Shown one piece after another: positions 43,614 to 50,214 of a stretch of 64,000 nt of DNA. The stretch comes from Escherichia coli (GTDB lineage Bacteria; Pseudomonadota; Gammaproteobacteria; Enterobacterales; Enterobacteriaceae). Position 1 is the first letter of the stretch, and each line of letters starts with the position of its first letter. Position numbers and translations under genes: made by a program. The stretch lies in NCBI RefSeq assembly GCF_024700885.2, contig NZ_CP117014.1; one strand, given 5' to 3'. The notes under the pieces were generated by a model. It ran no database searches, had not been told where the DNA came from, and saw only the letters and a program-made list of their open reading frames with translations.

Positions 43614-44003
43614 ATGGGCTTCCCTTCTCCTGCGGCGGACTATGTTGAAAGCCGAATTTCTCTTGATCAGCAACTAATCAGGCATCCATCAGCGACATAC
43701 TTCATGCGGGCGGCAGACAGCCATCACCGTGAGGGAATATTGCAGGGTGCTTTGCTGGTGGTTGATTCTTCGCTTACTCCAGTTGATGGTTCGCTGCTTG
43801 TGTGCGCTATGGAGGGAGAATATCGCGTAAAAAGATACCGGAAGTATCCGCGCCAGCACCTGGAGGATTTAAGCACCGGGAAGAAAGAGGCGTTACCAGT
43901 AGATGACGATGGTTACACGGGTAGTAATGCTGTTTTTGGTGTGATCACCCACATTATCAATGACGCCAGGGGCGGTGAATTTGATGATAGTCCTGCTATA
44001 TGA
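43614..44003 (+). CDS. humD: UmuD-prime-like S24 peptidase-fold protein (P1 HumD-like)
   Basis: 129 aa aligning with UmuD C-terminal domain (...LLVVDSS...GEYRVKRY...FGVITHII); SOS box upstream. Confidence 0.65.
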   Translation: MGFPSPAADYVESRISLDQQLIRHPSATYFMRAADSHHREGILQGALLVVDSSLTPVDGSLLVCAMEGEYRVKRYRKYPRQHLEDLSTGKKEALPVDDDGYTGSNAVFGVITHIINDARGGEFDDSPAI

Positions 44004-44560: not shown

Positions 44561-44668
44561 TCCCAGCAATTGCAAGACTGCATCTCGAGGATTTAAGGCA
44601 CCAAGAAGTGGTATTCAGCATCATTAAAACCTATAATTGCGTACACATAACGAGCACACGAGGTGTTT

Positions 44669-44890
44669 ATGCAATCCATTAACTTCCGTACCGCGCGCGG
44701 CAACCTTTCTGAAGTGCTCAACAATGTTGAAGCCGGGGAAGAGGTTGAAATCACCCGCAGAGGCCGTGAGCCAGCAGTAATTGTCAGCAAGGCTACTTTT
44801 GAAGCCTACAAAAAAGCGGCGCTGGATGCCGAATTTGCATCCCTGTTTGACACCCTGGACTCCACCAACAAGGAACTGGTTAACCGATAA
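44669..44890 (+). CDS. phd: Phd antitoxin
   Basis: 73 aa from [13 protein letters not shown]...; recognised as P1 Phd; stop overlaps doc start. Confidence 0.85.
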
Positions 44891-45270
44891 TGAGGCATAT
44901 ATCACCGGAAGAACTTATTGCGCTTCATGATGCGAATATAAGCCGCTACGGCGGCCTGCCGGGAATGTCAGATCCGGGTAGGGCAGAGGCCATTATCGGG
45001 AGAGTTCAGGCCAGAGTTGCCTACGAAGAGATCACCGACCTTTTCGAAGTCTCCGCCACCTACCTGGTGGCTACGGCGAGAGGGCATATATTCAATGATG
45101 CCAATAAGCGTACCGCGCTAAACAGTGCGCTGCTATTTCTACGCCGTAACGGTATACAGGTATATGATGATCCCGTGCTGGTGGAGCTTGCAGTGGGGGC
45201 TGCAACTGGTGAAATCCCCGTATCTTCAGTAGCGAAAAAACTACGTGAACTATATGGTTCCAATATTTGA
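44890..45270 (+). CDS. doc: Doc toxin (Fic-fold kinase)
   Basis: 126 aa with HIFNDANKR Fic motif; P1 Doc-like. Confidence 0.85.
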
Positions 45271-45305
45271 AAAGAAGCCCGCTCAACCAGGCGGGCTTCT
45301 TACTA

Positions 45306-46400
45306 TCACTCAATGATTTTTTCTGCTGTCAGCCAGCTAATTTCTTGCCTGTCTTTCGGCGGTTTTAGCATGTGGGCGTATTCAGCGACATTCTCCCACG
45401 GAATTGTTTTTGCCCACTCAACGATAGCATTGTGATCTGCAGTGAAGAGTGGAATGGTGTGCGATTTCAACCATTCTAATGTCGTGACGCCATGTTTTTT
45501 GGCGTGGTGCTGCGCATGATGCCGGGCTATCACTCGTAATGGTATTGTCCATTCACTACCATCAGGCATCGAAAAGCGCATTGTCTTCGGCATATCTGAT
45601 TCAAGAACAGCCTCCCTAATACCAGGGAACTCACCAAGAATCATACGACGATAGTCATCACTATTTCGCCCGCCATACCTTTCGGCAAAATGATCAAGAT
45701 ATTCTTGGGTAATAAATGGTGAATCCTCCGCACTCAGCTTAATGGCTTTATATACACCACTCGGATTATCTTCAGCTAAAGCACGTCCATGATGTGAATC
45801 ATAAAAAAAGCCTATTTCCTCTGGTGACGGAATTGAAGTGAGCAATATGCGTGAATCACCACTAGTCATGCTTGCCCACACAATGCTGTATGCCCGATCG
45901 CTGATATGTGCGGAATCCACAATAATGAATAAAAGATGGTCGGCGTAGTGACCTGCAATGCTATCTTCATAGTTAAGGCGGAAGTTACAAAAGCACATTC
46001 CCCAAAATTCATTGAACATCAGACCGCTATCACCGACCTTAAAATACTCAATGATAAAAGGTTGTTTTTTCAGCAATGCCTCCCAACATTGCCACACATA
46101 TGCAACAATTCCTCTTTTGCAAACATTTGATTTTGGATAAACAATTACTGTCCGGGAATCAGGATACATAATCGTATAAAGGGTACTAATAACAGCAAGC
46201 ACTTGCGGTCGTCCGATCCCATACGGAGTGGTGACAGTAGCTTTTGCATTATTGGGCTGTATAGCTTCAACAATTTGTTGTTGCTGGTGGCTTAAATCAA
46301 TATCAAACAATTCTTTTGCTGCCAGTACCCAATTGTCTTTATATTTCTCCACCAGCGACAGCCAGCGCGGATCTTTATAAATATTGCTCTTAGTCGCCAT
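45306..46400 (-). CDS. PacB-like terminase large-subunit paralog with degenerate Walker motifs (365 aa)
   Basis: Collinear with PacB N-terminal half (SHQQQQI, DSHHGRA, ESPF, YGGR) but Walker A GHGTGKSS replaced by PYGIGRPQ and Walker B LDEAS by VDSAH; start ATG 46400. Confidence 0.5.
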   Translation of the reverse strand: MATKSNIYKDPRWLSLVEKYKDNWVLAAKELFDIDLSHQQQQIVEAIQPNNAKATVTTPYGIGRPQVLAVISTLYTIMYPDSRTVIVYPKSNVCKRGIVAYVWQCWEALLKKQPFIIEYFKVGDSGLMFNEFWGMCFCNFRLNYEDSIAGHYADHLLFIIVDSAHISDRAYSIVWASMTSGDSRILLTSIPSPEEIGFFYDSHHGRALAEDNPSGVYKAIKLSAEDSPFITQEYLDHFAERYGGRNSDDYRRMILGEFPGIREAVLESDMPKTMRFSMPDGSEWTIPLRVIARHHAQHHAKKHGVTTLEWLKSHTIPLFTADHNAIVEWAKTIPWENVAEYAHMLKPPKDRQEISWLTAEKIIE

Positions 46401-47157
46401 CTGCCACTTCCTTAACTTCTTCTTTGGCCTGTTCTGCAATCGCCGCACGGCATTTCGCCCTGGCTGTAGCGATTGCTTCAGCTCGCACATCGTCTGGAAT
46501 CGTTGACGTGATATACATATCCAGTTCTTCGGCACGGAATACTGTTTGGTCCAGATATTCGCGTAGCATCCAGGTAAATTCGAAATCACACGCGATAATC
46601 TCTGCGCTACCTTCTGCACCATTTGGGAAATGAATAAATGCCTGTTTAGCCAAACCGATAACACGACATGCGGTTGCCAAAACAGCGACAACTAGGTTTA
46701 CATTTTCACACGCTACGGGCTGGTTAACGCCGGAGATTACTCCATTTAACTGTCGGTTATATGGAAGGTAGTTTGAGATGCGTTCTACGCGCCATGTGCC
46801 AGTCAGGCTGCCATTTTTAAATATAATTGGTGTAACGGATAGCCCAAGCTCGCGTATAAGTCGTTGCGCTATAGCAGGATCATTAAACAGGTCTAATGCT
46901 ACACATTCGAAAGACTGCGCAAGGGCAAACAGTTCTTCCAGAGAGTAGTCTTTGCCCCTGGCGGTGATGTAACGACGAACGCCGCTGTCTGCATCACTCC
47001 ATATAGCTACGCCATGCTCTTCATTCAGCTCTTCATTAAAGCCGAGATACGTCATGATAGTGCGTTCAATCGTGTCAAACGGCAGTGACATGTCGGCGTT
47101 AACAGCCACCAGCAGGCCATTACGCAAGCGGTATTGAATTGTTTTAGTGCTTTCCAT
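46390..47157 (-). CDS. Hypothetical protein (255 aa)
   Basis: ORF overlapping paralog start. Confidence 0.4.
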   Translation of the reverse strand: MESTKTIQYRLRNGLLVAVNADMSLPFDTIERTIMTYLGFNEELNEEHGVAIWSDADSGVRRYITARGKDYSLEELFALAQSFECVALDLFNDPAIAQRLIRELGLSVTPIIFKNGSLTGTWRVERISNYLPYNRQLNGVISGVNQPVACENVNLVVAVLATACRVIGLAKQAFIHFPNGAEGSAEIIACDFEFTWMLREYLDQTVFRAEELDMYITSTIPDDVRAEAIATARAKCRAAIAEQAKEEVKEVADGD

Positions 47158-47163
47158 GTCAAA

Positions 47164-47604
47164 TCACTCCACAACAAACCAGTCACAGGCCAGCAGGTCG
47201 CCAACTGAAGGCACCCACGGAACAACTACACCTTGTGCATTTTTTAAGGCGAAATAAGCACCATACGGAACGAGGTCGCCGGGGAAATATCCCTTAATGG
47301 CTTCCATTCGTGCCGGGTACTGTCCTTCAGGAACCAGCCAGCAGAATTGGTTTTCGCCGTTCCACCCGCGTCGAGCAACTTTCTTGCCTTCCTTCAGCCA
47401 CATCAGCGCGTCTGAAAAGTCGGCTGCTTCAAGGTCGATTTCTTCTTGCTGGGTGGTGATGCCACCAGCAGAAATAGTTACGCTCCCGGTAAGATTAATC
47501 ATCACGCCGTTGTCATCCGTAATGATGACCGTGGTTCCATTTTTTTTGTGAGCTTTGTATTTGGGACGGAACTTAAAAAGCTCTTTCGTTGCCATGTTAT
47601 TCAT
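47164..47604 (-). CDS. DUF2829-like (Tad2-like) domain protein with N-terminal extension
   Basis: C-terminal half ...DALMWLKEGKKVARRGWNG...VGDLLACDWFVVE matches the DUF2829 pattern from memory. Confidence 0.5.
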   Translation of the reverse strand: MNNMATKELFKFRPKYKAHKKNGTTVIITDDNGVMINLTGSVTISAGGITTQQEEIDLEAADFSDALMWLKEGKKVARRGWNGENQFCWLVPEGQYPARMEAIKGYFPGDLVPYGAYFALKNAQGVVVPWVPSVGDLLACDWFVVE

Positions 47605-47618
47605 AGTCTTTTCTCTGC

Positions 47619-48113
47619 TTATAACTTTTCGTACTGAAGCGGTGAACGCTTAATTTCAAAGTGGCCTTCCGATGTGCTACCAAAGCCACCAGCACCACGC
47701 TCCGTTTCGTTGAGTTCCTCAACCTCGACTAGTGAGACTTGTTCAACACGCTCAAAAATTCCTTGCATGACAGCCATTCCAGGCTTGAGACAAACGCCTT
47801 CCCCGCCGGGATCAGTAATCAGTTTTGCCATGATTTCGCCGCGATAATCGGAGTCGATAATTCCTACGCAGTTAGCCAGGCGAGTATGTTTTTTGCAGCC
47901 CAATCCTGATCGCGGATAGAGTTTCAGACACCAGCCGGGCGGGATCTCCATAGCCAGTCCGGTATACACCCACCAGCTTGAGGAAATTGCACCATTGCTA
48001 TCGACGCATGGTTTTATTTCAACAGCCTCAAAATCCATCGCCGCCGATCCGGAGGTGGCATAAGCTGGAAGTTTTGCTGCCGGATGTAGGCGTTTCACTT
48101 TTACGTAAATCAT
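47619..48113 (-). CDS. dut: dUTP diphosphatase
   Basis: Motifs AYATSGSA, PRSGLG, GIIDSDYRGE, GAGGFGSTS. Confidence 0.8.
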   Translation of the reverse strand: MIYVKVKRLHPAAKLPAYATSGSAAMDFEAVEIKPCVDSNGAISSSWWVYTGLAMEIPPGWCLKLYPRSGLGCKKHTRLANCVGIIDSDYRGEIMAKLITDPGGEGVCLKPGMAVMQGIFERVEQVSLVEVEELNETERGAGGFGSTSEGHFEIKRSPLQYEKL

Positions 48114-50029: not shown

Positions 50030-50180
50030 GAAACTATTTAACCTCTATATACAGATAACGCTACGCGAAAAATATAAAAATGACAGGGTAGCTATAAGTT
50101 AATTTTCAAGATTCAAGCCTTTGATTCGAGGCGCGTATTTTCAGTGATGTCAATACTGATCATCTACCCATAATTATAGC

Positions 50181-50214
50181 CTAACTTTAAATAATGCCAA
50201 TTATTTAAAGTTAT
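50181..50214. other. lox-like recombination site: 13-bp inverted arms with 8-bp asymmetric spacer
   Basis: CTAACTTTAAATA-ATGCCAAT-TATTTAAAGTTAT; outer AACTT/AAGTTAT shared with loxP. Confidence 0.6.

Follow-up and report, generated by a model that had tools for sequence, protein, structure and literature searches.

The tad2-like gene and its phage-plasmid setting

The 64-kb window (the whole stretch of DNA analysed here) carries a tad2-like gene whose product differs at two residues from that of phage D6 orf114 (YP_009914791), annotated as ‘DUF2829 domain-containing protein’, and is identical in sequence to the RefSeq entry ‘MULTISPECIES DUF2829 domain-containing protein [Enterobacteriaceae]’. 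The surrounding region shares 97.9% nucleotide identity with Escherichia phage D6, a P1-family phage-plasmid with a Dre/rox recombination system, and matches E. coli plasmids of ~90–95 kb (e.g., NZ_CP074704) at 99.5% identity. The family assignment is already public, both through the DUF2829 annotation and through the report of Tad2 in D6-like elements, a 2025 preprint having listed ‘Tad2 AcrIIA7 (anti-Thoeris)’ in phage-plasmids of clinical Enterobacteriaceae, with a frequency of 93% among D6-like and 56% among P1-like ones (bioRxiv 10.1101/2025.09.12.675607). Coordinates of the gene, its segments and its neighbours are collected in Table 1.

Table 1. Features of the tad2-like gene and the surrounding gene string, in window coordinates.
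Feature	Position	Strand	Basis and remarks
tad2-like gene	47164..47604	(-)	ATG-to-stop ORF, 146 aa + stop; from ORF list
Residues 1–20 (MNNMATKELFKFRPKYKAHK), N-terminal stub of a deleted Dec-like OB-fold domain	47545..47604	(-)	DNA alignment; AF2 pLDDT <50
Residues 21–58, predicted β-strand segment (KNGTTVIITDDNGVMINLTGSVTISAGG) similar to the first part of the C-terminal spike of phage L Dec, then acidic linker (ITTQQEEIDLEAA)	47431..47544	(-)	AF2, phmmer
Residues 59–146, Tad2 (PF11195) sponge domain	47167..47430	(-)	Pfam, AF2, Foldseek, alignment, dN/dS
dut (dUTPase)	47619..48113	(-)	Directly upstream, same direction, 14-nt gap; PHROG 135, 5.4e-62; D6 annotation
isaA-like gene	46390..47157	(-)	Directly downstream, 6-nt gap; PHROG 2326, 9.7e-134
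364-aa ORF	45306-46400	(-)	Directly 3' of isaA-like gene; PHROG 5902 (unknown function), 8.6e-165; weak terminase large subunit match, phrog_2, 9.4e-9
Candidate sigma-70-like promoter TTGGCA-16-TATAAT (11/12), upstream of dre	50173..50200	(-)	Consensus scan
Putative terminator-like hairpin after last gene of the string	45277..45292	(-)	Consensus scan

An earlier sequence-only reading had placed the gene in a block with dut and other accessory genes, and a dUTPase (PHROG 135) indeed lies directly upstream of it. On the other side, the isaA-like gene is a conserved partner of tad2 in P1-like and D6-like elements, as seen from the synteny of D6, SJ46, Ro157c2 and a D6-like plasmid (L004, GCA_012590785.1). 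Where the window has the 364-aa ORF, phage D6 and L004 carry small pdcA-like genes, and neither this ORF nor any other neighbour of tad2 was matched by PADLOC. As in D6 and P1, the accessory block is flanked by a toxin-antitoxin pair resembling phd/doc and by a humD (UmuD')-like gene (44663-45270 (+), 43614-44003 (+)).

Within the string, the stop codon of one gene overlaps or almost touches the start codon of the next; together with one strong sigma-70-like promoter upstream of dre and the terminator-like hairpin, this arrangement suggests a single operon, dre-orf117-orf116-dut-tad2-isaA-(364-aa ORF), from which we infer co-transcription of tad2 with dre and dut. A search for the P1 C1 operator consensus (ATTGCTCTAATAAATTT, up to three mismatches) gave no match in the 64-kb window, so C1 control of the operon is unsupported in this D6-like element. 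In P1-like relatives tad2 follows ssb, whose operon carries the C1-controlled operator Ossb in the P1 annotation; this suggests that the P1-like tad2 is repressed in the prophage and switched on by induction or infection, in keeping with a role in anti-defence. Strong enrichment of Chi is a known property of P1, and the window holds 47 copies of Chi (GCTGGTGG) per 64 kb, where shuffled sequences lead one to expect 1.7. Two copies in the same orientation lie 224 bp apart, one inside tad2 (47462-47469 (-)) and one inside dut (47686-47693 (-)).

A conserved Tad2 domain

The sequence-only reading had assigned the ORF to the DUF2829/Tad2 family, with the family signature in the C-terminal ~85 residues behind an N-terminal extension of ~60 residues, and had proposed an HMM search and a structure prediction as checks. 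Both support it. The translation carries the strings quoted at the time, and the Pfam-A search returned the ‘Thoeris anti-defense 2-like domain’ (PF11195) with an i-Evalue of 9.5e-23 (81 bits), covering residues 62–145 and model positions 2–73 of 73, a match far beyond chance. Comparison by phmmer with all PDB chain sequences retrieved MoTad2 (9eib, 8e-21; 8v3e, 1.1e-20), HgmTad2/AcrIIA7 (8kbi, 3.7e-11; 9kzr, 1.2e-10) and SPO1 Tad2 (8sme, 1.4e-9). The protein falls into PHROGs families 872 and 1048, neither of which has a known function; NCBIfam has no family for it, and PADLOC gave just a chance-level match to PbeA (E 0.017). Residues 1 to ~58 lie outside the domain without a Pfam match and therefore form a real N-terminal extension, as the earlier reading had it; the only internal methionines, M4, M35, M68 and M100, are unable to start a Tad2-only product.

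The AF2 monomer model, computed with 81 homologues, reaches pLDDT 89–96 over residues 61–146 and shows the Tad2 fold, with helix α1, an antiparallel β-sheet and the short loop helices α2 and α3. It matches solved Tad2 structures: all significant Foldseek matches in the PDB are Tad2 proteins, led by 9eib (ModTad2 with hisADPR, E 3.4e-10) and followed by 8v3e, HgmTad2 and SPO1 Tad2, with target-normalised TM-scores of 0.78–0.90. The core of the ligand pocket is formed by W81, N82, W130, S133 and D136. In SPO1 Tad2 the main contacts to 1''-3' gcADPR are made by W25, N26, W73 and D79 (Yirmiya et al., bioRxiv 10.1101/2023.05.01.538930); these align with W81, N82, W130 and D136 and are invariant in two alignments, one of them with the tested homologues. 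Peripheral second-shell contacts of SPO1 are altered (T78 to G135, H71 to V128, T65 to N122, D67 to Q124), so that ligand specificity is not readable from sequence. The β2–β3 loop (residues ~92–118) is long, of the length found in MoTad2 and Tad2_68, and AF2 predicts additional flanking strands at residues 94–97 and 111–114, of the kind described for MoTad2.

Compared with the D6, SJ46 and Ro157c2 alleles, the Tad2 domain shows 8–9 synonymous changes and one non-synonymous change (dN/dS 0.03). Selection on the domain is strongly purifying, and it is no relic; the gene product belongs to Tad2, a known family of sponge proteins of phages, and is well conserved.

The N-terminal extension and the modular locus

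Close homologues of the protein are mostly 216–233 residues long, and in the syntenic L004 the dut and isaA-like genes likewise enclose a 233-aa allele. Alignment of the DNA with this allele reveals a clean in-frame gap of 237 nt, common to the window and phage D6, which corresponds to codons 21–99 of the long allele and has a CAAAAA microhomology at both edges; the junction falls between codons 20 and 21 of the short allele (47544/47545). Retained are the first 20 residues, the segment KNGTTVIITDDNGVMINLTGSVTISAGG, the acidic linker and the Tad2 domain, whereas the Dec-like OB-fold domain present in the 225–233-aa alleles is absent. The N-terminal extension is thus the remnant of this deleted domain and not an added module.

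Within the remnant, AF2 predicts four short strands in residues 24–51 (monomer, pLDDT 62–72), and phmmer aligns the identical segment of a longer allele (P0010, INLTGSVTISAG) with ITLTGAVTGSAS of Dec, at the start of its spike, a resemblance extending over 12 residues. The Dec spike is a trimerising antiparallel β-structure (bioRxiv 10.1101/2024.09.08.611893). Against the SJ46 allele, dN/dS of the residue 21–58 segment is 0.44. The exact 146-aa protein occurs on at least 1000 contigs, compared with 102 for the commonest 225-aa allele listed in the same cluster; the deletion allele being more abundant than the long ones, loss of the OB domain is evidently tolerated.

This deletion is one of several rearrangements at the P1/D6 tad2 locus, a modular hotspot with Sequestin fusions and mosaic loops, and absent from classical P1. 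Tad2 is fused to Sequestin (PF21825), a 3'cADPR sponge (PMC12265669), in P0036 and P0050, and to the OB domain in P0001 and P0010; P0149 unites OB, Tad2 and Sequestin, and in P0089 the OB domain is C-terminal of Tad2. Across P0036, P0050, P0149, P0152, P0089 and P0183 (at or near the locus, Klebsiella phages), partner domains are shuffled in either order, including an OB-Sequestin combination. A natural dUTPase-Tad2 fusion (P0028, 241 aa, on public contigs; window counterpart 47462-47693) has its junction (...ERGAGG|ITTQQEE...) exactly at a 9-nt repeat common to dut and tad2 (GCTGGTGGC), and is therefore attributed to a deletion between two Chi-containing repeats. Variation reaches into the Tad2 domain itself: when the window gene is compared with L004 6001-6702 and P0063, the β2–β3 loop and helix α2 (window 47251-47330 (-), residues ~92–118) appear in at least three unrelated versions, EGQYPARMEAIKGYFPGDLVPYGAYFA, DKQGASRLTPIKHAANGDLEINFDSPLAPYGAHFV and AGSVNLHDIQVPYGDHFV, in otherwise near-identical P1/D6 alleles, a pattern that suggests recombinational swapping of a specificity loop. 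This loop forms a second pocket in MoTad2 and HgmTad2. Classical P1 (L006, NC_005856, 21051-22531) is without tad2, with isaA directly after ssb and with isaB and IS1 on the other side of isaA; its annotated IsaA (320 aa) starts with a 56-aa leader that in SJ46 precedes the start of tad2. The locus thereby provides a natural allelic series, with OB, without OB, Sequestin-fused, dUTPase-fused and absent, which together with the widespread Dec-like OB domain makes a ready comparison for the roles of sponge partner domains.

The lost partner domain belongs to a large family. An exhaustive profile search, used for the count after a word-indexed search had given fragments only, found 4386 clusters (50% identity) at E ≤1e-3, many of them stand-alone proteins of 83–96 aa (e.g., P0151, P0164, P0168), with the motif LP.Y.CHK.V.AAKI...KH.P..GGYFV.YEDGY.SYSPA.AFE.GY. 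Neither Pfam nor NCBIfam has a model for the domain, and it occurs in 44 sequenced phage records. In Ralstonia phage GP4 (L007 3004-3279) the homologue is a 91-aa ORF located between the genes for the portal and the major capsid protein and next to a CsrA-like gene.

Three identifications of the OB domain with described proteins were rejected. Acb4 has, by its description, a three-stranded core with helices on its flanks and not an OB fold, and neither P0010 nor stand-alone members matched PF13876 even at an E-value cutoff of 10. INPHARED genomes are reported to lack Lockin, in contrast to the 44 phage records found here. The cement protein of phage GP4 is the Ig-like gp1, of 157 aa and encoded by a separate ORF.

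Tal et al. found Sequestin by a ‘guilt by fusion’ logic, and the same logic makes the OB domain a candidate anti-defence module. The ssb/dut-tad2-isaA locus might then encode a modular multi-sponge, in which the OB domain would serve as an anti-defence module, either a signal sponge or a capsid/virion anchor, and the window allele would be a natural deletion mutant. This conjecture is prompted by a family of more than 4000 clusters that has no Pfam model, occurs in fusions with Tad2, Sequestin or both, in either order, and was excluded from published screens; we put it forward tentatively, as a speculation with the chances against it. Alternatively, the OB domain may be a plain Dec-like capsid-binding domain. 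In the multi-sponge reading, the Dec-spike-like segment that remains in the window allele might drive the Tad2 domain into an assembly that is non-tetrameric or of higher order.

Candidate signals, rival readings and known systems

By analogy with characterised relatives, we consider the protein likely to be a functional Tad2-family sponge for Thoeris signals that bears the N-terminal remnant of a 237-nt in-frame deletion. From the solved family members we infer that its C-terminal 88 residues assemble as a homotetramer. In pockets between the protomers, with W81/N82 and W130/S133/D136 in their walls, it would trap the ADP-ribose-derived alarm molecules that Thoeris TIR (ThsB) proteins produce, likely His-ADPR (type II Thoeris) and probably 3'cADPR (type I) as well. 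Sequestration would inhibit Thoeris by keeping the ThsA effector off, and would allow the phage-plasmid to establish or replicate in Enterobacteriaceae that carry Thoeris. Sponge activity probably does not need the N-terminal 58 residues, the remnant of a Dec-like OB-fold module.

The choice of ligands follows the nearest relatives. Among experimentally tested Tad2 proteins with a retrievable sequence, identity over the Tad2 domain is highest to Tad2_68 (68%) and MoTad2 (47%), all others being at or below 39%. [quoted passage not shown] Type II Thoeris (His-ADPR) is thus indicated by the nearest tested relatives no less than type I, and our best estimate, based on relatedness, is a sponge for His-ADPR and probably also for 3'cADPR. 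An assay with type I Thoeris alone could therefore give a false negative. G135, a small residue at the position of SPO1 T78, is shared with most type-II-active homologues and also with Tad2_82, which is active against type I only.

As to the extension, HgmTad2 (151 aa) has one at its N-terminus and is active, so that an extension as such is tolerated. The Dec-spike-like segment retained here could interfere with tetramer assembly. The tested homologues Tad2_69 and Tad2_78 inhibited none of seven systems (Hadary et al., bioRxiv 10.1101/2025.08.24.671296). That screen left out Tad2 homologues also matching PF21825 or PDB 6E3C (Dec-like), and the exact window sequence was not found in its supplements (bioRxiv 10.1101/2025.08.24.671296). 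If active, the protein would explain how D6-like phage-plasmids, which many STEC, Shigella and Salmonella lineages carry, establish in Thoeris hosts; given how difficult His-ADPR is to come by, an active enterobacterial Tad2 allele close to His-ADPR binders would also be of use as a reagent.

A different main target is conceivable for a protein of this fold. Its chief ligand could be a Pycsar signal (cUMP/cCMP), a CBASS cyclic dinucleotide or the N7-cADPR of type IV Thoeris, bound in a second pocket formed by the long β2–β3 loop and helix α2. At this second interface MoTad2 binds cUMP and cCMP and HgmTad2 binds cGAMP and cGG, while Tad2_71 and Tad2_79 block type IV Thoeris. The window loop has the MoTad2 length and the same predicted flanking strands (94–97, 111–114), and no other part of the gene is so mosaic across P1/D6 alleles, as would be expected of a specificity determinant. 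However, Tad2_68, with a near-identical loop (VPAGEYPARMEAVKGEFENDQVPYDAY), was negative for two of two CBASS systems, two of two Pycsar systems and type IV Thoeris, and we regard a main target outside the His-ADPR/3'cADPR pair as rather improbable.

Still less probable, to the point of being very unlikely, is a decaying remnant, in which the deletion would have disabled a two-domain protein and the ORF would persist through operon linkage only. Such decay would be in keeping with the gene being an internal deletion derivative of the 225–233-aa alleles, with the predicted disorder of its N-terminal 22 residues, and with its complete loss from classical P1, where the lack of the gene is evidently tolerated. 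Against it, the reading frame is kept, the Tad2 domain evolves at a dN/dS of 0.03 with all family-invariant residues retained, and the deletion allele outnumbers all other forms (at least 1000 contigs) and is common to E. coli and Salmonella.

The E. coli and Salmonella hosts of D6-like elements have type I CRISPR-Cas and are not known to carry type II-A, which counts against an AcrIIA7-type anti-CRISPR directed at type II-A Cas9. DUF2829 proteins were first reported under the name AcrIIA7, still attached to 8kbi and 9kzr (matched at 3.7e-11 and 1.2e-10), but Cas9 binding was never shown, the family has been re-interpreted as sponges (bioRxiv 10.1101/2023.05.01.538930), and identity to HgmTad2/AcrIIA7 is ~36% only, leaving this reading scarcely credible.

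A Thoeris-signal sponge thus being the preferred reading, the protein is best placed by comparison with known systems. Its closest tested relative, the metagenomic (IMG/VR) Tad2_68, shares 68% identity over 82 aligned Tad2-domain residues, the same β2–β3 loop and the same LKNAQG...PW.PS.GD motif, but is a stand-alone protein of 87 aa, whereas the window protein has 58 extra N-terminal residues. Among solved proteins, the best match in both sequence (47% identity) and structure is MoTad2/ModTad2 from a Myroides odoratus prophage (9EIB with His-ADPR, 8V3E apo), which has the same extended-loop architecture; with 88 aa it lacks the extension, and it spares type I Thoeris and binds cUMP/cCMP. SPO1 Tad2 (gp34.65; 8SME/8SMF/8SMG) has the fold and the core gcADPR contacts in common with the window protein at an identity of only ~36%, and differs in a shorter loop and in the stacking of F44, which closes the second pocket. 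The layout of an N-terminal extension before Tad2 recurs in HgmTad2/AcrIIA7 (8KBI-8KBM, 9KZR), where ~45 residues precede the domain of a still active sponge; that extension is helical and unrelated in sequence to the one described here, and the much longer loop binds cyclic dinucleotides.

Same-locus P1/D6 alleles are fused in the manner of the described multi-sponge fusions, namely Acb4-Tad2 of Pasteurella phage Pm86 and Tad2-Sequestin (PF21825; PMC12265669). The window allele, in contrast, has no partner domain, and the partner it has lost is a Dec-like OB fold, neither Acb4 nor Sequestin. Phage L Dec itself (6E3C) has the OB domain that the window protein lacks, and forms a trimer, as opposed to the tetramer of Tad2.
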